64,000 bases of DNA from Shigella phage SHFML-26. A program made the translations under genes and the position numbers. This document shows positions 1,569-29,895 of the stretch, in pieces. The stretch lies in the sequence record KX130862. One strand, 5' to 3'. Within the stretch, counting starts at the first letter, position 1; the number at the start of each line of letters is the position of its first letter. The notes beneath the pieces are model-generated. The model had not been told where the DNA came from. It ran no database searches and saw only the letters and a program-made list of their open reading frames with translations.

Positions 1569-2507
1569 TTATTTAAATTGTTCAGTAACGTCTTCAACTA
1601 CTTCGTATTGGCAGGTACGCATTTTAGCATCGTTGTAATCAATCGGAATTGATACTACATCGCGAGGATGAACTTTAACTTTTACAACTCGGCTGGTTGA
1701 ACTACCAAAGTGACGAATATAAGATTTAGAACACACATGCAGACCGCGAGAACAAGTCTGTGTATCATCGTCATTCACACGAGTACGTGGCATTTTAACT
1801 ACTTTACCCGGACTGTTATCAAAGGTGTTTGAGTGACAGTCAAAGTAATTGCTGCGAACTACTTTCCAAGCATAGAAGTAGCCATCTTCTGTAATTTCAA
1901 TATCGTTTGCTACCAAGAAATCAAAGAGTCGAGATACCGCTTTTTGGCTTGGGTTTTCCAACAGATTTTCCAAGAACGGAAAATAAAATTCAAAGTTTTC
2001 GCCTTTTTCCATCGAGTCAAGAATACGATCAACCAAACCAGACCGCAATTCAATATTTTGATAGAACAAGCTTCCACCTTCAATTCGAACATCGCCGGAA
2101 ATATATTTTTCAACAGCGCGACGAACATTAATTTTTTGTGCAGCTTCTTCCAGCTTATCTGCTACAAGCAGATTAAGAATTTCCTGGAAGTTTGAATGAG
2201 TATTAGGAGTTGCGTTATAAGTTACACCGTCAACAGTAATTGAAATGAATTTTTTAGATGCATTCCAAATAATGTCAGATTTAGCAACTGGAGCAATAAC
2301 TGCATCGCTATTAACTTTAACTGTAATATCACCGCTAATAGTAACTTTAGGGCGTTTAGCTTCTTCAGCATTTTTCAAAACACGACGGATTGTGTCAACC
2401 GATACATCCTTCCAATAAGCCAATTCCTGTTGGGTGTAATTACCACTTGAATACAGTTTAACAATTTCAGCTTGTTCGTTTTTGGTCAGGCATTTAATAT
2501 TGTACAT
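1569..2507 (-). CDS. rIIB: rIIB protein (312 aa)
   Basis: 312-aa ORF directly downstream of rIIA; sequence recognised as T-even rIIB. Confidence 0.9.
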   Translation of the reverse strand: MYNIKCLTKNEQAEIVKLYSSGNYTQQELAYWKDVSVDTIRRVLKNAEEAKRPKVTISGDITVKVNSDAVIAPVAKSDIIWNASKKFISITVDGVTYNATPNTHSNFQEILNLLVADKLEEAAQKINVRRAVEKYISGDVRIEGGSLFYQNIELRSGLVDRILDSMEKGENFEFYFPFLENLLENPSQKAVSRLFDFLVANDIEITEDGYFYAWKVVRSNYFDCHSNTFDNSPGKVVKMPRTRVNDDDTQTCSRGLHVCSKSYIRHFGSSTSRVVKVKVHPRDVVSIPIDYNDAKMRTCQYEVVEDVTEQFK

Positions 2508-16859: not shown

Positions 16860-17194
16860 TCACAAGATGTAGATGAACAACTAGAATCACAAGAACTTCC
16901 ACATGAATCGCCCGTCCATACATGAACAGGAACATTAGTGTCATATGAATCAGAACTAGACTGTGTATTCTGCGTATTAGATGATGTAGGTGTTGACCAG
17001 CGCCAAGGATTTTTATAATATTCTTGGGCTTCTTCATAAGTCATAGTAACTGCTTCTACTGTTCCATCTCCCATATAAACATATTCAACTACAGTTAAAG
17101 GAAGGTAGTCATTTGAAATAGGAACTACACCTTCTCCGGGAGTTGTAGAGAAAAAATCCGTAAAGAAACTTTTAAACCAATTAAAGATAAACAT
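16856..17194 (-). CDS. hypothetical protein with Cys/Ser-rich C-terminal tail
   Basis: ORF track; C-terminus [15 protein letters not shown]. Confidence 0.45.
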
Positions 17195-17400
17195 TACAAA
17201 AAGCCTCTTTTGAATTCAACTTGCTTCTCGCCATAATCATATCGAATCTCTGCATTAAATTCAACAGAACCATCTGCGTACATCATAAATGAATGCACAA
17301 CAACTTCTGTAGACCATGGCTGTAGTTCATATTTCTTCATTACATGCCGTGAAATGATAATATCTAAATCTTCATTTGGTTTAATCCAGCGATTTAACAT
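17194..17400 (-). CDS. hypothetical protein
   Basis: ORF track; early promoter at 17427-17456. Confidence 0.45.
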   Translation of the reverse strand: MLNRWIKPNEDLDIIISRHVMKKYELQPWSTEVVVHSFMMYADGSVEFNAEIRYDYGEKQVEFKRGFL

Positions 17401-17426
17401 AGTGCTCTCCTCTATAAGATAATTCT

Positions 17427-17456
17427 ATTATACCATACTCATTTTGGAAAGTAAAC
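17427..17456 (-). promoter_or_regulatory. T4-type early promoter directly after soc terminator
   Basis: GTTTAC ... TATAAT. Confidence 0.55.
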
Positions 17457-17460
17457 CGGT

Positions 17461-17490
17461 AAAATGAAAAAAGGACTCCCGAAGGAGTCC
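17461..17490 (-). terminator. intrinsic terminator after soc
   Basis: GGACUCC-UUCG-GGAGUCC then UUUUUUCAUUUU. Confidence 0.65.
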
Positions 17491-17498
17491 TTGAATTA

Positions 17499-17735
17499 TT
17501 AACCACCTATTTCTGTAGGCGTAAACATTGCAGCATTCTTAGTTTTCCAAGTTGCTGCATCGGAAACTACATCAGAATAAGCTGCTTTTTCTGAAGGAAA
17601 GATTTGATAATGAGAATCTGCAATACGGTGTTCATTTGAATATACATCAAATGCTACAGAAACTTCCATACCTTTAACTTCTTTGCCTTCACCCGCTGGA
17701 TGAGTAAAGGTCTTGATGTTAACGAAACCACCCAT
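17499..17735 (-). CDS. soc: small outer capsid protein Soc
   Basis: 78-aa ORF recognised as Soc; late promoter TATAAATA upstream; terminator downstream. Confidence 0.8.
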   Translation of the reverse strand: MGGFVNIKTFTHPAGEGKEVKGMEVSVAFDVYSNEHRIADSHYQIFPSEKAAYSDVVSDAATWKTKNAAMFTPTEIGG

Positions 17736-17766
17736 AATAAACTCCTTTATTGTTTAATTACAGGTG

Positions 17767-17774
17767 TATTTATA
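17767..17774 (-). promoter_or_regulatory. T4 late promoter TATAAATA upstream of soc
   Basis: Exact TATAAATA on minus strand ~30 nt before soc start. Confidence 0.6.
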
Positions 17775-17944
17775 TCAGTCTTCAATGAAAACTTGTGCCA
17801 GGAATTCGTGTTCATCTTGAATTTGTTTATATAAAGCCATTACAGCATTTATATTAGAGCTATCTACTTTAAGTTGATAGGCATACCACTCGTATAAATT
17901 AATTAAAGCTTTTTGTCGTCTAATAAATTCTTCTTTGGATATTT

Positions 17945-18145
17945 TCATTTTGAATGCTCTATAATTAATTTTAAGGCTTCTTTACTGACAAAAATTTCAT
18001 CAAGACCTTCTTCTACACCCCAATCAACTACACGAAGCTGATTAGATAAGAGCTCGTATGTGAGCTCCTTGTCATAATTTTTAAATAGCTGGTCAATACG
18101 TTTCTTGTGGGCTTTCTTAAGCTGGCGTTTATTTAAACGAGCCAT
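17945..18145 (-). CDS. hypothetical protein
   Basis: ORF track. Confidence 0.4.
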   Translation of the reverse strand: MARLNKRQLKKAHKKRIDQLFKNYDKELTYELLSNQLRVVDWGVEEGLDEIFVSKEALKLIIEHSK

Positions 18146-18663
18146 TAATAACCTCGGTCTTGACGAGCGAAGTTTTCAGCATTTTTCAGATAATAAAGTT
18201 TAAAGATTTCTTCAGCCGTAAGACCGAGGCCTTGGAACATGTTCAGAACGAAATGAAGAATATCAATCATTTCGAATTTAATTTCCAACTGGTCTTGTGG
18301 AGACAAATCAGTAATCAGAGTTTCACGTCGTTCACCATGTTGAGCTTTCCAAGGCTTCCATACAGCAGATGCATCTTTTTCACCATTGCTCATACCACCA
18401 AGAGAAGTCAATAGTTCGCGGAATTCATCATCAATATAATCTTTCTGATTACGCAGCCAATCAACAACTTCACCCGCAGTAGCCAAATCATCAGGATGAC
18501 GGTTATATTCAGGTTTATCTTTAGCTAAACGAACCTGCAGAGATTTCTGCATATCAAGCATAACTTGCAACGGGTCTTTTTCATCACCGAGAATATCCCA
18601 GTATTCATTTTGAGCTTTATCAGCGCCTTCAATCAGTTGTGAACATTCATTAAAGTATGCCAT
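18145..18663 (-). CDS. 56: dCTP pyrophosphatase (gene 56, MazG-like)
   Basis: Start moved to ATG at 18661-18663 (MAYFNECSQL) behind AAGGAAA; 172 aa. Confidence 0.8.
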   Translation of the reverse strand: MAYFNECSQLIEGADKAQNEYWDILGDEKDPLQVMLDMQKSLQVRLAKDKPEYNRHPDDLATAGEVVDWLRNQKDYIDDEFRELLTSLGGMSNGEKDASAVWKPWKAQHGERRETLITDLSPQDQLEIKFEMIDILHFVLNMFQGLGLTAEEIFKLYYLKNAENFARQDRGY

Positions 18664-18734
18664 TATTTTTCCTTTCAATTCATGGGTTAGTAGATTAATT
18701 ATACAATAAATATATAAAGCAATAAGGAGGATAT

Positions 18735-18935
18735 ATGGTACAAAAATTAATGGCACTTGTTAATGCCATAAAAGGTAATAAAAAACGTATAGCTTTTACT
18801 ATTTCTGCTATGGTAGGAATTTTACTCTGGAATTTTGTTTTATCACCAATTGCTATTGCTCATGGTGTTAATATTCCAGTAATTACTCTTGATACATTCG
18901 TAGATTTAGCATTTGCTTTAGTTGGGTTAATTTAA
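18735..18935 (+). CDS. small hydrophobic membrane protein (66 aa)
   Basis: Only convincing plus-strand ORF; AGGAGG SD 6 nt upstream of ATG; lies between genes 56 and 61. Confidence 0.4.
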   Translation: MVQKLMALVNAIKGNKKRIAFTISAMVGILLWNFVLSPIAIAHGVNIPVITLDTFVDLAFALVGLI

Positions 18936-19960
18936 ATCTTAGCGTATTTAGATAGCCGCATTTTAGCCATCAACCCTTGGGCAATATTATTTTTCATATA
19001 TTCCATAATTTGTTTAGGGGTTGCACCTTCCTTTCTAATCATATCATTAACATCTTTTGATTTCCAGGGAGATTTATCCCAAAACATAACCCTTTCTCCT
19101 GCATCAACTAATTTAGTCATTCGTTTAATAGTGTCAGGGTGACGAGGTTCATTATCTAAAACCCATACACGTCTATCTTTAAATGGAACAATTTCTAGGT
19201 CTAATTGACCACCCGTAATAGCTATACCATTTTCAATAAAAAGTGAATCTATAGGTCCTTCTAGAACATATACATCACCATCTTTGACTCGTTCGACTCC
19301 ATAAATTTTTGTTGCCTCAGGATAAGCTTTGATGGTGATATATTTTTGAGGAGCATCTTTCTTTAATGCACGTCCTTGAAAAGACTCAGCTTTTCCGTTA
19401 GCATTATAAATTGGAATAACAAGACGAGGCTCAGGTATTTCCTTTTTATATGTTCCTGGCGCTATACTATTAACTAATTTAGGCCATTCGGTTGTAAACC
19501 AAAGATATTTCCATTTATCCTTTGGAATACAACGAGCTTTTACATATTTTATAATTGGATGGTCTTCCGCCAGTTTATCTAATCTAATGCATGACGGAAG
19601 AGATTTAATTATTTTCTTCTCAGGTTGTTTAGGAAGTTCTTTAGGTTTTTCTACTGGACGACTTTTACCTTTTTCCTTTCTTATTTCAAAGATATACTCA
19701 CGATATAAATCAGGTTCAAACTCCTTTAAATATATTCCGATTGGTGCATGATAGTTACAGTTATAACAATGAATATTTCCTTCATTATTATCGCCATAAT
19801 ACCATCCACGGGCTTTATTTTGGTCGGTTTTTGAATCTCCACAAACAGGACATCTAAACCGTAATTTAAAAGTTGAACTATTATTTACTTGTGTGAATTT
19901 AGGTAAATGAGCTAATGCACGGTATGCAAACTCATTATCAATCCAAGGTATTGATGACAT
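18932..19960 (-). CDS. 61: DNA primase (gene 61)
   Basis: 342 aa; N-terminal zinc ribbon CPVCGDS...CYNC; Toprim-like core. Confidence 0.85.
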   Translation of the reverse strand: MSSIPWIDNEFAYRALAHLPKFTQVNNSSTFKLRFRCPVCGDSKTDQNKARGWYYGDNNEGNIHCYNCNYHAPIGIYLKEFEPDLYREYIFEIRKEKGKSRPVEKPKELPKQPEKKIIKSLPSCIRLDKLAEDHPIIKYVKARCIPKDKWKYLWFTTEWPKLVNSIAPGTYKKEIPEPRLVIPIYNANGKAESFQGRALKKDAPQKYITIKAYPEATKIYGVERVKDGDVYVLEGPIDSLFIENGIAITGGQLDLEIVPFKDRRVWVLDNEPRHPDTIKRMTKLVDAGERVMFWDKSPWKSKDVNDMIRKEGATPKQIMEYMKNNIAQGLMAKMRLSKYAKI

Positions 19961-19962
19961 TT

Positions 19963-20127
19963 TTACTCTTCTTTTTCTTTAGATTCCTCTTTTTTCTTTT
20001 TAGGAATCTGTTCAGGACCTTTATTTACTACAGCGCCTGACGTTGTTCCAGTGGAGATATTTTCAGGATTACCACCTGAATCTCCAGCTACCATATCTTC
20101 TTTAATAAATTCTTTATATGTTTTCAT
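19963..20127 (-). CDS. small acidic/basic protein (54 aa)
   Basis: Own translation (MKTYKEFIKEDMVAGDSGGNPEN...); GAGGT SD. Confidence 0.35.
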   Translation of the reverse strand: MKTYKEFIKEDMVAGDSGGNPENISTGTTSGAVVNKGPEQIPKKKKEESKEKEE

Positions 20128-20128
20128 A

Positions 20129-20755
20129 TTAACCTCTATTCATAAAAGCATTAAAAATTTGGTCATCAATAGAAACATCTACTTTAGACTGTTTTTCTGA
20201 TGGTAATTCATATCCACATATTACAATTTTGTGATCAATATCAAAATACACAGAAGCAATATGATTAATGATGTTTTCAGTAAAGTCTAAATCAACATCA
20301 ATATCTTTTTGACCACAGCCCAAAGGATAAATAATGCGAGTAATTCGATTATCTTTAACAAAGATTCCACCGACATACTCTGTGCTGTGTTTAAAGTCTA
20401 CACGCCGACGAAATGAAAAATATTCAGGCTCTTTATGAGCTCTGCTCATAGGACACAACGAGTAACTAGAATAAGAGATGTCAAATCCTACGCCTTCGAT
20501 ATGAGCCAAAGTGTCATGATTAAACCAATTATAATCGTACGCCAAATCCATTAGATTATAATATGTAAAAGGCACCGGATTAACATCATTAGTCACAAGC
20601 ATATAATTAGCAACTGCTATAATTTCATTGTTTTTAACGAATACAAACCGTGATTGATGTGAATGACCCGGACCCGCGTTTTCACGATTAATGATATAAC
20701 ACTGGGCACCTTTATATTTGTATGTATCTTTACACTTGTGCATTTGATAGAGCAT
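20129..20755 (-). CDS. hypothetical protein (61.2 position; possible AdfA-like by position)
   Basis: 208-aa ORF between primase and sp. Confidence 0.45.
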   Translation of the reverse strand: MLYQMHKCKDTYKYKGAQCYIINRENAGPGHSHQSRFVFVKNNEIIAVANYMLVTNDVNPVPFTYYNLMDLAYDYNWFNHDTLAHIEGVGFDISYSSYSLCPMSRAHKEPEYFSFRRRVDFKHSTEYVGGIFVKDNRITRIIYPLGCGQKDIDVDLDFTENIINHIASVYFDIDHKIVICGYELPSEKQSKVDVSIDDQIFNAFMNRG

Positions 20756-21048
20756 TATTCACCTACTACTTCAGCAATGATATTTTTATTATTAAAGTTT
20801 TTATCGCAATACAGAACATAATTATACTGCATTACACCACCAGACTTAAGCTGTTTTTGTACTTCAGCTTTCATTTCAGGACGATCACGCTCAACGATAT
20901 TCATAATATCTGCTTCAATTTGAGTTTCAACCTCAGTCTGATCTGCAGTCATAGACCATTCGCACAAATCTTTGTCATAACCCGCCATAGCAGGCTGAGC
21001 AGCGCAAGAAGATAAAGCAAAAATTGCAGCAAAGATAAATTTTTTCAT
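20755..21048 (-). CDS. sp: Spackle (Sp) periplasmic protein
   Basis: 97 aa with signal peptide, recognised Sp sequence; late promoter upstream. Confidence 0.75.
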   Translation of the reverse strand: MKKFIFAAIFALSSCAAQPAMAGYDKDLCEWSMTADQTEVETQIEADIMNIVERDRPEMKAEVQKQLKSGGVMQYNYVLYCDKNFNNKNIIAEVVGE

Positions 21049-21069
21049 GATAATCTCCTCAGTAGTTTA

Positions 21070-21077
21070 TATTTATA
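21070..21077 (-). promoter_or_regulatory. T4 late promoter TATAAATA upstream of sp
   Basis: Exact TATAAATA on minus strand. Confidence 0.5.
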
Positions 21078-21111
21078 GTATCTCAATTTCCAATAAAAGT
21101 AAACAGTTATT

Positions 21112-21363
21112 TTAAAACTTCTGCAAATCACATGTTACAAACTGTTTCTCTAACTTGGCGATTTTACGAAAGTATCTTTTGCATTGACGAATCTGTCGCT
21201 TTGTAGGGCGCACAACAAACTTAATAAATTCCACTCGACCAAATGGAGGGCTTTCTTCTGCCGGAATATCTAATACTAATTCCCACGTATCTGCAATAAG
21301 TGCTTTGAATTGAGTATTTTTCCTGACGTTATACGGAGTAGGTTTAAATAAAACAATATGCAT
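21112..21363 (-). CDS. basic small protein (61.4 position; possible TifA-like)
   Basis: ORF track 21112..21405; start moved to M15 to abut dmd; K/R-rich. Confidence 0.4.
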   Translation of the reverse strand: MHIVLFKPTPYNVRKNTQFKALIADTWELVLDIPAEESPPFGRVEFIKFVVRPTKRQIRQCKRYFRKIAKLEKQFVTCDLQKF

Positions 21364-21364
21364 A

Positions 21365-21547
21365 TTATCCTCGGCAATCCACTTCACATACTTTCTTGTC
21401 ATCAATGAAAGCTTTAACTAATGCTTTATTAACTTCAGCATATTGAGTAGTAGCCCATTGAACGTCATCTTTCATCATTGTGATCTCTTTAGTAAACATG
21501 CTTTCGTTCTTAAACCACCCCATAAAAACTACCTTTACCAATTCCAT
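21365..21547 (-). CDS. dmd: Dmd antitoxin (inhibitor of RnlA/LsoA)
   Basis: 60-aa ORF recognised as Dmd; directly upstream of gene 41 region. Confidence 0.75.
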   Translation of the reverse strand: MELVKVVFMGWFKNESMFTKEITMMKDDVQWATTQYAEVNKALVKAFIDDKKVCEVDCRG

Positions 21548-21576
21548 AACAATCTCCTCATTTAACCAACAAGACT

Positions 21577-21606
21577 ACTATACCATAGTCTTGTCAGCTT
21601 GTAAAC
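21577..21606 (-). promoter_or_regulatory. T4-type early promoter upstream of dmd
   Basis: GTTTAC ... TATAGT. Confidence 0.5.
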
Positions 21607-23033
21607 TAAAATTTTAATTCATTTGCCAAAGCATCTAACTGAGCTCGAGCGGATTCGTTTCTTTGATAGCGATTCTGTTCAGCCTGAATCTGCTGTGAAC
21701 CTGCTACTTCGTTCACTTCAGTTGGAGTAGAATCTTGTTCAATTTCTACCCATTTCTGATTTCCTTTTTGAACACCCATCAAAAACTTATTCCATTTATT
21801 CTTATCACCGTATCGTGATTTGATTTGCTTAATAAGTTGTTGTTCAGCAGCTGCTAGCTCCTCGGTTTCAATGACCGCAAGCATAAAATCGGCTGTTGCT
21901 GGAAGGCCGGCAGATTCTGCAATATCGCTCATGTTAACATCAGAAGAGTCCCAAGCTTGTTTACCAACCTGTGCTGCGGTCCAAAGAACAGTTTCGGTTT
22001 CAACAGCCAGAGCACGCAATTCCTCTGCGATAGCTTTAACAGTTGTGTAACTATTTTCTGAATAAACTCTGATGCGGCAAGATTTACAAATACCCAGATA
22101 GTCAACAATAATGATTGTTGGAACAAAATTCTTCTTGAGCTTCAATTCATTCAAGAGAGACCTGAATGTATTAGCGTCTGCTCCACCAGTAGGATACTGT
22201 TTAACGATTAAACGTCCAAGAGTAGATTTCTCACGCCATTTTTCCATTTTTCCTTTATACTCAGCGTAAGAAATATGCCCATCATCAATGTCATCAAGAG
22301 AAACATCAAGCATATTAGCATCAATACGCTTAGCACAGACTTCTTCTGCCATTTCCATGGAAATGTAAAGAACATTATGTCCGAGCTGCAAATAATCTGC
22401 TGCCAATGAACACAGACCTAATGACTTACCGACGTTAACACCAGCCATTAAAACGTTCAGTGTTCCAGTTTCAGCTCCACCTTTAGTAATTTTATTTAGA
22501 ATTTTGAGTCTAAATGGAACCTTACGAGCTTTATTCATATAAGATAGCCAACGTGCTTCGTAGTCATCCATCCAATCATGACCAACGTAACTATCAAATG
22601 AAATTGATAATGCTTGGCGCATGATGTCAGGAATAGCACCTACATCTGGCATTTTCTTATTTCGTTTTTCCGGAGGAAGCTCAGCATTAGTTTGAATTTC
22701 AATTATTTTAGACGTAGCATTAAACATCGCCCTTTGCTGAACATATTTTTCTGTTTCTTTTACTAACCAGCTATGGTCTTCTGGAGAATCGGCTAGTTTC
22801 GAAATAAGTGTTTTTACACCAGAATATTCTGTTTCAGTAAATGAACTATTTTCTAATGCAACATTTAACGCATTAATAGATGGAACGCTATGGTACTCAT
22901 TAACATGAGATTTAATTAATTTGAATGTATTTTTAGCTGGACCACTTTCAAAATATTCTGAATCCATATATGGCCAAACTTTTGAAAAATAAGCTTGATC
23001 AAATATGAGATGAGAAAGAATAATTTCTACCAC
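21606..23033 (-). CDS. 41: replicative DNA helicase (gene 41, DnaB-like)
   Basis: 475 aa; Walker A GVNVGKS; recognised gp41 sequence. Confidence 0.9.
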   Translation of the reverse strand: MVEIILSHLIFDQAYFSKVWPYMDSEYFESGPAKNTFKLIKSHVNEYHSVPSINALNVALENSSFTETEYSGVKTLISKLADSPEDHSWLVKETEKYVQQRAMFNATSKIIEIQTNAELPPEKRNKKMPDVGAIPDIMRQALSISFDSYVGHDWMDDYEARWLSYMNKARKVPFRLKILNKITKGGAETGTLNVLMAGVNVGKSLGLCSLAADYLQLGHNVLYISMEMAEEVCAKRIDANMLDVSLDDIDDGHISYAEYKGKMEKWREKSTLGRLIVKQYPTGGADANTFRSLLNELKLKKNFVPTIIIVDYLGICKSCRIRVYSENSYTTVKAIAEELRALAVETETVLWTAAQVGKQAWDSSDVNMSDIAESAGLPATADFMLAVIETEELAAAEQQLIKQIKSRYGDKNKWNKFLMGVQKGNQKWVEIEQDSTPTEVNEVAGSQQIQAEQNRYQRNESARAQLDALANELKF

Positions 23034-23042
23034 ACTTACTCC

Positions 23043-23405
23043 TTAAAAGAATTTAAATTTTTTCTTTGACCTTTTATTAAATGCATCTTGTAGTTGCATT
23101 GTAATACATTTTTCTACATGAGGAGCTAACTCAGCTTTTCTTTCTTGGTCAAGAACAGCAAAGTCCATTACGACTTTTCCATCAACCCAATCTAATTTTG
23201 TCACATACACAATGTGTGTAGAACCGTCTTCTAGTTTAATGACAATCTCCTGGATAACATTTTCCATAGCGGATTTAATTATCTTAAGAGACTCATTAAA
23301 AAGACGTTCTTTTCTTTCTTCTTCCCCCTCCGAAGAGGGGGATTCATCGATAATTTCTAGATCTAAATCTAAATCATCTTTATTCATTAAATTCTTCCAT
23401 ATCAC
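23043..23405 (-). CDS. 40: gene 40-like protein (120 aa)
   Basis: Position between 41 and uvsX; size. Confidence 0.5.
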   Translation of the reverse strand: MIWKNLMNKDDLDLDLEIIDESPSSEGEEERKERLFNESLKIIKSAMENVIQEIVIKLEDGSTHIVYVTKLDWVDGKVVMDFAVLDQERKAELAPHVEKCITMQLQDAFNKRSKKKFKFF

Positions 23406-24561
23406 TTAACTGCTCGAGGTCAGTTTCTAAATCAGCAGCTGATTTACTTTTACTTTCTGGAGATTTAAATTTTTCAACCTTTGAGTTAATCAATTCATCA
23501 ACTTCAGCTTCAACAATTTCATTACTATCAATAGCACCTAACTGATAAGCACGTTTAATAGCATCTCGGAATGGTTGATGCTTAAATAAAGGACCCCAGA
23601 ATGTAGTGCAGTTGGTATCTTTTGCACGCCAAGATTTTTCTTCGCGAATCATCTCACCGGTTTCTTCATCAAGAAATTCACGAGCATACCAGCCATTTTT
23701 AGGTTTTACCACGAATCCTAATTCTAGAGCCATATCTAACAATCCAGAATAAGGATCGATACCACCGTCAAATTTAACATCAATAAAGAATTTACTTTTT
23801 TCTTTAACGGTACGAGATTTTTCTACATTTAGAACAAATTGATACCCCTGAAGATCGGAACCATCTTTAATCTGGCGCTTACCGATAATGAATACAGTAT
23901 CAGCCGAATACATTACGCCTGTACCACCTGTCATCACGGTTTTACTAAACATTTCGATTGTTTCAATTGTATGGTTAACCGCAACACATGGAATATTTTT
24001 AATGCTAAAATAAGGAGTAACAATACGGAATAATGACTTCAGTGATTTAGCACGAGTCATATCTGCCACAGATTTTTCATTCAAGGCATCTTCCGTTTCT
24101 TTCTTAGAAGCCATATTACCAATTGAGTCGATGAATACAATAACTTTTTCACCACGCTCAATAGCTTCAAGCTGATTCACCATATCAATTTTCAGCTGTT
24201 CAACTGACTGGATTGGTGTGTGAATTACTCGTTCCGGGTCAACTCCCATGGATCGCAAATAAGCTGGAGTAATACCAAATTCGCTATCATAGAATAGACA
24301 AACCGCGTCAGGATATTTGTTCAAATACGCCGCAACCATAGTCAAAGACATATTTGATTTAAAGTGTTTAGAAGGACCTGCAAAAATGGTTAAACCAGAC
24401 TGCATACCACCGTCAATCGCACCTGAAATAGCGATATTAAGCATTGGGATTTTTGTACGGATTACATCCTTTTCATTAAAGAATTTAGATGTAGTCAGTT
24501 CAGCAGTCATTTTAGAAGTGGAAGCTTTAATCAAACGGGATTTTAAATCTGCAATAGACAT
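23380..24561 (-). CDS. uvsX: UvsX recombinase (RecA-like)
   Basis: Walker A GPSKHFKS; recognised UvsX sequence. Confidence 0.9.
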   Translation of the reverse strand: MSIADLKSRLIKASTSKMTAELTTSKFFNEKDVIRTKIPMLNIAISGAIDGGMQSGLTIFAGPSKHFKSNMSLTMVAAYLNKYPDAVCLFYDSEFGITPAYLRSMGVDPERVIHTPIQSVEQLKIDMVNQLEAIERGEKVIVFIDSIGNMASKKETEDALNEKSVADMTRAKSLKSLFRIVTPYFSIKNIPCVAVNHTIETIEMFSKTVMTGGTGVMYSADTVFIIGKRQIKDGSDLQGYQFVLNVEKSRTVKEKSKFFIDVKFDGGIDPYSGLLDMALELGFVVKPKNGWYAREFLDEETGEMIREEKSWRAKDTNCTTFWGPLFKHQPFRDAIKRAYQLGAIDSNEIVEAEVDELINSKVEKFKSPESKSKSAADLETDLEQLSDMEEFNE

Positions 24562-24638
24562 TCATTTTTTCCATAGGCATCATTATATTTTCCTCACTGG
24601 TTAAAGATAGAGTAATTATAACACAATAAATTTAGGCA

Positions 24639-25481
24639 TTAATCAACTGCTATTGGATGAATAGCATTAAACTTATGAAACGCTTCTGATTTTTCTTTGC
24701 GCGAAACACACATGCGAAGAACCTTTAATGGCTCGTCTTCTTCACCTAATGATTTTCGTTTTTCAATATTAGAAGTTTTCCAACGAGCTTGCTCTGGAAA
24801 CTCTCTATTGATTTGCTCAAGCGCTCTATTATGTTTAGAATTACTACGAATTGAGCTACATCCGCCTGGAGCTTGCGCTTTTCCAGATACAACCAGATAT
24901 TTGAACAAGGCCAAATGCGGATAACCTTGATTAATTAAATTGAGAAATGCATACATATCTTCGCATAAATCAATTTTTCCATACCCAATTTGTTCTGTTG
25001 TAAGTTTTCCAAGGTCATACCAAGTATTCGTGAATCCATATGAATTTTCACGATAATTACCCCAAGATGAAGTAATTTTAAAAATTGGTAAACGAGCATG
25101 ACCATGATAATACCCGCAATCCATGGCATCTTCAACGTATTGAATCAATTCATAGAACTGTTCACGAGTTAGCTGATTAATTTTATCTACGCAGCGACGA
25201 TCATCTTTCTTTCGCATTGAACTCATACGAATAGTAGTATCATCATCAATCATCCAAATTCGTTGACCTGCATACATATCAGTAATTGCTTTACGAGTAC
25301 CAGCAATTCCGTTAACATCATCAGGAATAGTTATAATTTTAGCTCTAGACCCGTAAGCGTCATAATAAGCTTTTTCTTCGTGTTCACGCACTACAATATG
25401 AGGTTCATAATCAGTCGGAAACATATCAAGGGCAGAAACTGCCCCTACGCGTTGATAGCTTGGAATTACGAATTGAATCAT
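24639..25481 (-). CDS. glycosyltransferase (GT-A-like with DxD motif) in the DNA glucosyltransferase position
   Basis: MIDDD motif; ATG at 25479-25481 forms ATGA overlap with gene 42 stop. Confidence 0.6.
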   Translation of the reverse strand: MIQFVIPSYQRVGAVSALDMFPTDYEPHIVVREHEEKAYYDAYGSRAKIITIPDDVNGIAGTRKAITDMYAGQRIWMIDDDTTIRMSSMRKKDDRRCVDKINQLTREQFYELIQYVEDAMDCGYYHGHARLPIFKITSSWGNYRENSYGFTNTWYDLGKLTTEQIGYGKIDLCEDMYAFLNLINQGYPHLALFKYLVVSGKAQAPGGCSSIRSNSKHNRALEQINREFPEQARWKTSNIEKRKSLGEEDEPLKVLRMCVSRKEKSEAFHKFNAIHPIAVD

Positions 25482-26218
25482 TTCCACTCACCGTTATAAT
25501 CTTTTTTCGCAATATGAGTTTCGCCAGTTTTCCACCAATGGTCAACCAAATAAAAATGACGGGAATACACATGAAGGCTCCCGACATTCCATATAATGGA
25601 ACCTGCTTTATACTGACGAGTTGAATCACCTGCATTCAAATCAGATACTAATTTATCTAGTACGTATTTTTGCCATGCATAATCATTACGGAATCCGAAA
25701 ACCACGTCATTTGAACGCATGCTTACTACTGCATTGACTTTCTTGTCACGAATCAGATACTGTACGGTATTCGTACACATGAAATCTGACATACCATCTT
25801 TATTGTAGTCAAACTGCATAGATGGACGAGTATAAATCATGATACCACGTCGAGAATCAGGATTTTGACCAAGTTCAGCTAGACACATATCATATTGAGC
25901 ATAGTTATCTTCTGACCAGATAGCCCAACCATAATTCGAGTTAATTTCACCTTTAGAAGATGCTACCTGCTGCCAAATCTTTGGTGTTTCACCTGGAATA
26001 TCTTTAACAAACAAGCTCTTAGATTTATACCATTCAAGTTCACGCTGGATGTATTCATCATTAAGAGCGCCAAAAATAAACGGTTCATCTGCTACAAATG
26101 ATGCGCCAATAATTTCAATAGTTTTAACGCCAGTTTTATCAACTACGAAATCTTTTTCTTTTAATGCAAGCCCCAAATGAAGACGGATTTCTTCAACTGT
26201 CATAGAGTCACTAATCAT
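25478..26218 (-). CDS. 42: dCMP hydroxymethylase (gene 42)
   Basis: 246 aa; thymidylate-synthase-like fold; recognised sequence. Confidence 0.9.
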   Translation of the reverse strand: MISDSMTVEEIRLHLGLALKEKDFVVDKTGVKTIEIIGASFVADEPFIFGALNDEYIQRELEWYKSKSLFVKDIPGETPKIWQQVASSKGEINSNYGWAIWSEDNYAQYDMCLAELGQNPDSRRGIMIYTRPSMQFDYNKDGMSDFMCTNTVQYLIRDKKVNAVVSMRSNDVVFGFRNDYAWQKYVLDKLVSDLNAGDSTRQYKAGSIIWNVGSLHVYSRHFYLVDHWWKTGETHIAKKDYNGEWK

Positions 26219-27195: not shown

Positions 27196-29895
27196 TCAGC
27201 CAAACAGGAAGTCTAACGAAGCTTTTTCTTCATAGTCCATACCTGCCGATTCACACATACCTGCAAGCGGCTTAACAAACGATTTTTGGAACAAAGTTGA
27301 GTAGTCAATCCAAGATAGTACGTCAGAACGAATTTCTTTTGGAAGTTCTGTACCTGATGGCCAAGCAATGCACTTGTCACCAAATGGATTTCCTTCACGT
27401 AATGGAAGAACCATTACTTTATTTCCATCCAAAATTGGAGCTACACCTAAACCACTAACAGCTCGACGATAAGTTAGCACACCACGAATATGGAATGGGC
27501 ATTTAAATCCTGGCCAACCTTTATCATCATATTTCGCTATATCGTTCGCAGTTTTTACTTCAGCAATAACTTTATAGTCAAGTTGACGATATTCTTTCTC
27601 GAAGTTCTTGTAGTATTCTTGGACAGACTCTTCACCTTCCTGAAGAATACGACGAATACTTTCTTCGAGAGCTTCTTGCACCGCTTTTGGTGTTGAACTC
27701 TGCTGAGTTTCCATACCCATGATTTTTAGATGCGGTTCGGCAAATCGCTTATCTTCCATATCATAAACGTTCAGAGCATAACGTTTTTTCGCTTTCCAAA
27801 ATCCACCAACACCCTTTGAACCAAGCGGAGGGCAAGAAATAGCTTCACGGTCCATATGCATCAGATGCTCGCGGTTATTCATATAATCACATAACTCACG
27901 ATATGCAACATCAATCATAGGTTCCATCTTTTTCTTACCAAACTGATTCATGAATTCAACTAAATCATTTTGTTCTTTAAAGCGGTCAAGACCTACTTTT
28001 TCAATTACTTTATCTACACAAACATATACCGAATCAGTATCACCTGCTGCGATGAAATCTTCACCATTAGTTCCACATACTTTATTCAGATATTCATTAA
28101 TTTTGCGAGCAATCCATTGAATACCGACTTGACCGAAAATTGTGATAGCAGTAGCATTTCGCAAATCATAGTAGCGGAAATGAATATTACCAAGAGCACC
28201 ATAAAGACTGTTAATAAGAATTTTACGGTTCAACTGATTTGTGTTAGCAAGTGTAGCAGCTTTTTCACATTCTTCAATCAGACTGTTAAGAACAGATTCG
28301 GTGTAATTCGATAATTCGTTTAAGAAATCATCATTGAACTTAACATATCGTTCAACTTCCGGTTTAGTTGAACAGGACCCTGCGCCTTTCATAATAATCT
28401 TTTTAATAGCTTCGGCATTCATTTCTTCAGCGAACATTTTCTTTTTCCAATCTTTACGCTGGAAAAATACTTTAGCGATTTCCTTTGGAATGATACCTTC
28501 TTGATGCTTATCATACATCCATCCATTCGGAGAACAAGAATATTCATCACTCGGTTTAGGAGCTGTTCCTGCGATATATTCATGAATTGGATGAACTTTA
28601 AACTGCCCACGAATAGTCTCAGGACTAATGTTAACCTGACGAATAATGCTCGGATACAGAGACGTCAAGTCAAAACTCATAATATATCGACGAGCAATTG
28701 GTTTAGGTTCAAATACAAATGCACCCGGAAAACTCTGTTTAACGTGCGAACCTTGTTGAGGAATAACCTTATGTTCACCTTTCAATGAGTTAAAAATAAT
28801 AGCATCCCAAGTTTTAATAGGACTCATTACACCAGAAAAAGGCATTTTAGCATAATAAGACATACTTAAAACTAGATCGATAAACCCGCGAATTTTATCA
28901 ATTGCTTGAACTGATTCTACGTCAATGATGTTATAACTAATGTATCGTTGATGATTAGTCTCACGAAGTTTATTAATAGGACCGTCGTATGGTAATTTAC
29001 CTTTTTTGGTTTCATGTTGAGCAACTGATTCCAAAGAGAATGACGGCAAATTAGTAAATGCGAATTTCTTATACAAATCTAAATAATCAAGAATAGATAC
29101 GCCATCAATAGAATAAATTTCTTTGCTACCGTACATATTTTGAATTAGTTTAGATTTTACCCGACCGATTGGAGAGAAACGTTTCATACTGCGTTCACCT
29201 AGAATCATTTTAACGCGATTCATAATATATGGAACGTCAAACCCCTCAATATTCCAACCAGTAAAAATAGCAGGTCGTTTCTGTTCCCAGAGATTGATAT
29301 ATTCCATGAGCATATCACGCTCATTATCGAATGGCATATAAATTACTCGGTCAAGAATTTCTTGAGGAACTTCATCACCACCTTCACAGTCAAGCTTAGC
29401 AGCTAACTTTGCATCCCATTTTGATACTGAACCGTACATTGAATTCAAAAGGTCGAAAACATAAAAACGATCATCAATTGAATCGTAATGAGTGATAGCA
29501 TCAATTTCATATTCAGCTTTCATTGGGTCAGGAAATTTATCACCAGTAACCTCAATGTCACAGTTAGCTACACGAACAAATTTTCGGTCATAAACAATTT
29601 CTGAACCATACGTATCACTGATATAAGCGAGTTTAAAATCGTTCATACCGAGAGCTTCGAGACCGATGTCTTCCATTCGTTTCATCCAATCTCGAGCATA
29701 TTTCATTGATGGTAAATTTTTGAGGTAGCGCTAGTTTTTACCATAGATGTCTTTGTACTTTGACTCTTCCTTACAATGCCTAAACATAGTTGGAAGATAT
29801 TCTACTTCACGAGTACGTTCCTTTCCGTTTTCATCAATATAACGTTCAACAATGTTATTTCCGACTGTTTCAATAGAGATATAAAATTCTTTCAT
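27196..29895 (-). CDS. 43: DNA polymerase (gene 43, family B), interrupted by in-frame TAG at 29731..29733 (codon 55); longest ORF 27196..29706
   Basis: ATG at 29893-29895 ([14 protein letters not shown]...); exo and pol motifs (FDIE, YGDTDS); translational operator hairpin upstream. Confidence 0.85.

Follow-up and report, generated by a model that had tools for sequence, protein, structure and literature searches.

In phage T4, the region between genes 41 and 61 has been proposed as an "anti-TA island", TA standing for toxin-antitoxin, by Srikant et al. 2022 (PMC9391042). Its gene dmd encodes a protein antitoxin mimic that inhibits the endoribonuclease toxins RnlA and LsoA, and is co-transcribed with 61.4 from an early T4 promoter upstream of dmd (PMC9391042). 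Gene 61.4, renamed tifA by Srikant et al., codes for a protein that inhibits the type III toxin ToxN (PMC9391042). TifA binds ToxN and RNA, for which it needs a basic C-terminal helix with the P53-T54 cap, K55, R56 and R59 (Guegler et al., PMC10853763). Gene 61.2 is adfA, encoding an inhibitor of DarT toxins (PMC9391042, citing LeRoux et al. 2022; also PMC11257639), and is present in only 13 of 17 tested Tevenvirinae (PMC11257639). The product of the adjoining gene sp (61.3, spackle) acts in the periplasm, where it inhibits the tail lysozyme gp5 of superinfecting T-even phages and thereby mediates superinfection exclusion (PMC7650644, and a passage in PMC7677548). Here we describe the corresponding locus in 64,000 nucleotides (nt) of DNA from Shigella phage SHFML-26 (sequence record KX130862), hereafter the window, in which a first-pass annotation had seen a cluster of candidate anti-toxin and anti-defence genes between primase and helicase.

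From our sequence comparisons, we conclude that this locus is very probably the T4 anti-TA island as carried by another member of Tequatrovirus. A megablast search with positions 19900..21650 as the query, run against a collection of 50,697 phage records, matched 538 records, almost all of them Tequatrovirus-type T4-like phages of Escherichia, Shigella and Yersinia. The window belongs to the same group, its closest record being Escherichia phage e11/2 (vB_EcoM_112), with 98.4% nucleotide identity over 1751 nt. The locus itself is already known, as the island concept, both inhibitory mechanisms and the amplification escape have all been published. We establish homology here and draw the functions from what has been published on the orthologues of T4 and RB69. 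The block and its flanks consist of the following features.

21606..23033, minus strand: gene 41, helicase, flanking the block
21577..21605, minus strand: early sigma-70-type promoter of the dmd-tifA operon, from a promoter scan (TTTACA, 17 nt, TATAGT, with TG before the -10 hexamer)
21365..21547, minus strand: dmd (61.5), 60 amino acids (aa), from homology to T4 Dmd and Pfam PF17587
21112..21363, minus strand: tifA (61.4), 83 aa, from homology to T4 gp61.4 and Pfam DUF7279
20755..21048, minus strand: sp (61.3, spackle), 97 aa, from homology to T4 Sp and Pfam PF25676
20129..20755, minus strand: adfA (61.2), 208 aa, from homology to T4 gp61.2 and Pfam PF23813
19963..20127, minus strand: 61.1, 54 aa, the last gene of the block before gene 61, 96% identical to T4 gp61.1
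18932..19960, minus strand: gene 61, primase, flanking the block

The early promoter, dmd, tifA, sp, adfA and 61.1 thus follow one another tightly on the minus strand and are succeeded by primase gene 61, in the gene order of the annotated T4 and e11/2 records. The four open reading frames (ORFs) drawn by the first-pass annotation are all present where it had placed them, on the minus strand between gene 61 and gene 41. The small gene 61.1 (19963..20127) also lies inside the region and was absent from that annotation. Stop and start codons at the junctions TAATATG, TAATG, TAATATG and TAAAAATG are 1-2 nt apart or overlap by 1 nt, which fits co-transcription and translational coupling. No terminator was called in a scan of the region.

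The five small genes are genuine and evolve under purifying selection. In BLASTP comparisons with the T4 proteins, E-values range from 1e-36 to 3e-154, and the ratio of nonsynonymous to synonymous substitution rates (dN/dS, Nei-Gojobori) against T4 is 0-0.12 for all five. The opposite view, that the minus-strand ORFs are chance frames in AT-rich DNA or that the true genes sit on the plus strand, could draw on several plus-strand ORFs of 30-97 aa that overlap the region. It was rejected as practically impossible: each of the minus-strand ORFs is 96-100% identical to a T4 orthologue (E down to 3e-154) and matches a curated family, purifying selection is strong, and an Rfam scan found no RNA family match on either strand of the region. 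None of the five proteins matched the PADLOC models, as is expected for anti-defence genes.

T4 (NC_000866 18966..20553) has the same genes in the same order, on the same strand and with the same spacing between genes 41 and 61. Identities to its proteins are 100% for Dmd, 97% for TifA, 97% for Sp, 96% for AdfA and 96% for gp61.1. Phage e11/2 (NC_024125) has identical gene content at the locus. In RB69 (AY303349), orthologous dmd, 61.4, sp, 61.2 and 61.1 genes likewise lie between genes 41 and 61, but imm, imm.1 and four ORFs are interspersed among them.

Dmd is identical to T4 Dmd in all 60 residues, so that the first-pass annotation was right in recognising this gene. It matches Pfam family PF17587 (Dmd) with 156.9 bits and PDB entry 5hy3_B ("Antitoxin Dmd") with E = 1.8e-37, and would act by binding and inhibiting the ribonuclease toxins RnlA and LsoA. 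The early promoter is likewise conserved: the 76-nt region around it differs from T4 by a single base, located downstream of the -10 hexamer.

The first-pass annotation had assigned the 208-aa ORF and the lysine- and arginine-rich ORF of about 83 aa to 61.2 and 61.4, linked to inhibition of DarTG and ToxIN respectively, by position only. Both assignments are now borne out by BLASTP homology to the T4 proteins (96% and 97% identity), by Pfam family matches and by the published naming of 61.2 as adfA and 61.4 as tifA. The 208-aa protein is identical to T4 gp61.2 at 200 of 208 residues over its full length (96%, E = 3e-154), and matches Pfam PF23813, "Anti-DarT factor A", over all positions (1-211 of 211) with 448.9 bits, the cut-off being 27. 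It is 99% identical to AdfA of e11/2 and 70% identical to RB69 gp61.2. Its gene adjoins sp between genes 41 and 61 in the window, T4, e11/2 and RB69 alike. The allele is marked by the following codon.

20261..20263, minus strand: codon of AdfA His165, which aligns with R164 of RB69 (NIINHIASV against NNINRIASV)

This position is polymorphic, with H, N or R across 12 representatives of the AdfA family. RB69 carries the non-neutralising Arg164, and AdfA was defined in that phage by an R164H escape mutant. The R164H change confers both DarT1 binding in a two-hybrid assay and neutralisation, and T4 has the active His-type allele (PMC11257639), which the window shares. AdfA of the window thus appears to be the DarT1-neutralising His allele, and the phage should neutralise DarT1 when AdfA is expressed. 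The protein would act by binding the ADP-ribosyltransferase DarT1 and so preventing ADP-ribosylation of phage DNA. The family is narrow: a search of 5.8 billion proteins found no distant relatives and only 16 clusters, each with 68% identity or more and each belonging to PF23813. Structure prediction (AlphaFold2, 12-sequence alignment) was of moderate quality, with a predicted local distance difference test score (pLDDT) of 68.1 and a predicted template modelling score (pTM) of 0.53. Foldseek found no PDB structure that matched this model at E <= 0.001, the best TM-scores being about 0.2, and a PDB sequence search with AdfA found nothing. The lack of a fold match agrees with a published statement that AdfA is homologous to no known family.

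The 83-aa protein is identical to T4 gp61.4 at 77 of 79 residues (97%, residues 1-79, E = 1e-58), and matches Pfam DUF7279 (PF23945; 73.5 bits, cut-off 24.5) and phrog_2375 (E = 1.8e-37). A PDB sequence search with it found nothing. As the first-pass annotation had noted, it is rich in lysine and arginine, which make up 17 of its 83 residues (20.5%); its isoelectric point is 10.0, and 11 of the 33 C-terminal residues are basic. The length of 83 aa is counted from the ATG; the frame in the mechanical ORF list runs up to a TTG at 21405 and overlaps dmd. The gene follows directly on dmd, with TAATATG joining the dmd stop and the tifA start, behind the upstream early promoter conserved with T4. 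Three features within tifA bear on its activity.

21241..21243, minus strand: codon of TifA F41, the weak T4-type allele
about 21154..21207, minus strand: TifA P53-T54 cap and basic helix, from alignment with T4, e11/2 and RB69
about 21124..21126, minus strand: 1-nt deletion at the 3' end of tifA (codon 80), changing the tail from YAE(I/V)LK to LQKF

Residues P53, T54, K55, R56 and R59 are invariant in the alignment of the window, T4, e11/2 and RB69, and the basic helix PTKRQIRQ of RB69 TifA is identical to that of the window. TifA would bind RNA through this helix and also bind ToxN, so that this endoribonuclease is held inactive within a ribonucleoprotein complex. Potency depends on residue 41, F being weak and S and H strong (PMC10853763). 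From the F41 allele we infer that TifA of the window is of the weak type, and that the phage should beat ToxIN at chromosomal level and, without amplification of dmd-tifA, be restricted by ToxIN at plasmid level. As T4 carries the same AdfA His and TifA F41 alleles, T4-like behaviour is expected.

The deletion makes TifA two residues shorter than the standard 85-aa form, which is found in e11/2 and, ending in YAEILK, in T4. The intact C-terminal extension of the T2/T4/T6 type is therefore not kept in the window, and the LQKF tail occurs in none of 632 phage records with a TifA match. Tblastn matches over residues 1-82 had suggested that HY03-type phages share this tail; this was dismissed, as the alignment shows YAKVLK there. 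A 121-nt piece had no 100% match in the 50,697-record phage collection, the best being 97.5%. An exact-match search of IMG/VR for the tifA frameshift, for the TATAAATA variant upstream of sp and for insertions in gene 43 (both described below) found none of them, which is a weak test since even the common tifA allele occurred in only 3 contigs. The isolated indels specific to the window could be real or sequencing errors.

Several points speak against a fully T4-like function of the locus. AdfA differs from its T4 counterpart at eight residues, and TifA carries A50V and V69A in addition to the recoded tail. TifA homologues are specific for particular ToxN proteins (PMC10853763). Deletion of adfA from T4 produces no DarTG1 phenotype, and the same holds when adfN is lacking too (PMC11257639); the native target of AdfA may hence be a different DarT, which leaves its importance uncertain; the authors of that study give as reasons that gp30.3 (AdfN) also acts and that T4 AdfA is maybe tuned to another DarT. 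Sp falls outside the anti-toxin theme, and the activities of the window's alleles are read from comparison with the T4 and RB69 sequences.

Together with the weak F41 allele and the singular frameshifted tail, these points could be taken to mean that the genes are true orthologues, with TifA (through the frameshift), AdfA (being tuned to another DarT) or both inactive against ToxIN and DarTG1. We consider this quite improbable. RB69 TifA is a potent 70-aa form that inhibits more strongly although the entire C-terminal extension is missing from it; the extension is thus dispensable and not family-defining, and because of this the recoding of four tail residues is expected to have no functional effect and is probably harmless. 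The residues known to matter, namely P53, T54, K55, R56 and R59 of TifA and His165 of AdfA, are all intact. Moreover, ectopic T4 AdfA restores growth of RB69 on DarTG1 cells (PMC11257639), and dN/dS is about 0.05-0.08.

The case of sp is different. Sp is identical to T4 Sp at 94 of 97 residues (97%) without gaps, and matches Pfam PF25676 (T4_Spackle, 153.3 bits) and PDB entries 6x6o (E = 1.1e-60) and 7cn6 ("Protein spackle"). In T4, a 22-residue signal peptide is cleaved from Sp, and the mature protein has Cys29 and Cys81 and forms a complex with gp5 (PMC7650644). The AMA-G cleavage site and both cysteines are kept in the window, where Sp would be exported to the periplasm and inhibit the gp5 lysozyme of a superinfecting phage. 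The reading of the locus as an anti-toxin and anti-defence cluster therefore holds for dmd, tifA and adfA, which are anti-toxin orthologues, and does not hold for sp. The first-pass annotation had described sp as a signal-peptide protein behind a late promoter, and both elements are found as sequences.

20983..21048, minus strand: Sp signal peptide, residues 1-22, MKKFIFAAIFALSSCAAQPAMA, followed by GYDKD
21070..21077, minus strand: TATAAATA box, located 21 nt upstream of the sp ATG and agreeing at every position with the consensus of T4 late promoters

The signal peptide of 22 residues is thus confirmed, as is the perfect box; the late promoter as such is a sequence match only, given that a passage in PMC7677548 describes T4 Spackle as an early gene product and that relatives carry TATAAACA instead. 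The latter is found at this site in T4, e11/2, HY03 and Sfk20, and the perfect box arose from a C-to-T change seen only in the window among the records examined. Beside the box lies a 2-nt deletion relative to T4, which the window has in common with Sfk20. TATAAATA occurs four times in the 64-kb window, against 10.4 matches expected by chance, and another of these is located just upstream of the late gene soc (17767..17774). As a smaller possibility, the perfect box may give the phage extra late expression of sp, adfA and 61.1.

The unrelated function of Sp also bears on whether the grouping of these genes has mechanistic meaning. The locus could be a hypervariable accessory slot between replication genes that is filled by recombination, the anti-toxin genes lying together without mechanistic significance. 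The contents of the slot do vary. In HY03, the place of adfA is taken by a 118-aa protein (2126..2482 of the HY03 piece examined), which resembles AdfA only in the C-terminal third and in the SIDDQIFNAFMNRG motif at the very end, with 37% identity to the C-terminal part. Sfk20 lacks adfA, sp being followed directly by 61.1 (1612..1625 of the Sfk20 piece examined), and the RB69 region holds the six extra genes mentioned above. Nevertheless, three of the four characterised genes target toxins of toxin-antitoxin systems, dmd and tifA form one operon, and those who characterised these genes have put forward the concept of an anti-TA island (PMC9391042). We therefore regard co-location without meaning as rather unlikely, although not to be neglected. 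The slot and island views are compatible, anti-defence islands being themselves hypervariable accessory slots.

The anti-TA island reading raises the question of the remaining gene, 61.1. Its product is identical to T4 gp61.1 at 52 of 54 residues (96%), with a dN/dS of 0.12. It is a small protein, acidic with a basic tail, that has a Gly/Ser/Thr-rich middle and ends in KKKKEESKEKEE. It matches phrog_1823 (unknown function), and a second PHROG match, of residues 8-53, falls on the C-terminal end of the longer family phrog_2086 (156 positions); Pfam and PADLOC searches gave no match. Further anti-defence roles for neighbouring genes have already been proposed by the authors of the anti-TA island concept (PMC9391042). 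That gp61.1, or alternative occupants of the adfA slot such as the HY03 118-aa protein, are further inhibitors of toxin-antitoxin or other defence systems is conceivable, and we think it unlikely.

When toxIN is plasmid-borne, T4 escapes it by amplifying the dmd-tifA segment via flanking microhomologies of 6-10 bp (PMC9391042). Two sequence elements of the window lie at the borders of this pair of genes, the first of them in two copies.

21043..21061, no strand assigned: 19-nt direct repeat, copy 1, with the 10-nt exact core AATCTCCTCA (plus strand), spanning the start codon and ribosome-binding site of sp
21542..21560, no strand assigned: 19-nt direct repeat, copy 2, at the dmd ribosome-binding site
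21564..21599, minus strand: 15-bp hairpin in the 41-dmd intergenic region (RNA fold -18.9 kcal/mol, z = -4.1 against shuffles)

The two repeat copies are 499 nt apart and bracket dmd-tifA, which makes the repeat a candidate microhomology that may be used for amplification in this phage. The hairpin overlaps the spacer and the -10 hexamer of the dmd early promoter, and is kept in T4 and e11/2. It is carried only by transcripts that read through from gene 41. No T-run follows its stem, and the scan called no terminator there.

Elsewhere in the window, the DNA polymerase gene 43 (29706..29895, minus strand) carries an in-frame TAG as codon 55. Relative to RB14, it shows three single-A insertions within about 25 nt and one G-to-T change, after which the frame is restored downstream, and the local peptide is altered where the reference reads NCAPQKFPSMKDA. 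The gene is consequently split in the ORF list: its N-terminal 54 aa form one piece (29731..29895), and a second piece of 836 aa (27196..29706) begins at the Met that corresponds to T4 M63. The stretch measures 398 nt in all 501 of 501 related records and 401 nt in the window. The change may stem from an error in the assembly, mark an amber mutant or be a genuine variant.

Three T4 genes, namely dam, segA and the T4-type beta-glucosyltransferase gene, had no DNA match in the window in a blastn search with T4 positions 17000-25000. The corresponding stretches are as follows.

18757..18931 and 24562..25487: regions lacking matches to T4 dam, segA and beta-glucosyltransferase, from blastn, the ORF list and the e11/2 annotation

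Gene 56 (18145..18756) abuts gene 61 in the window, with only a plus-strand 66-aa hydrophobic ORF (18735..18935) between them, which is annotated in e11/2 too. In e11/2, by contrast, dam and a 186-aa ORF are found between genes 56 and 61. A 282-aa ORF (24639..25487) follows uvsX, and at the same position e11/2 is annotated with a beta-glucosyl-HMC-alpha-glucosyltransferase.

The main value of identifying this locus lies in annotation, as in most related records the orthologues of 61.2 and 61.4 are still annotated as "hypothetical protein" despite their published functions. In addition, the allele calls provide phenotype predictions: AdfA of the phage would be of the DarT1-neutralising His type, and its TifA, carrying F41, would be weak and leave the phage sensitive to high-copy ToxIN.

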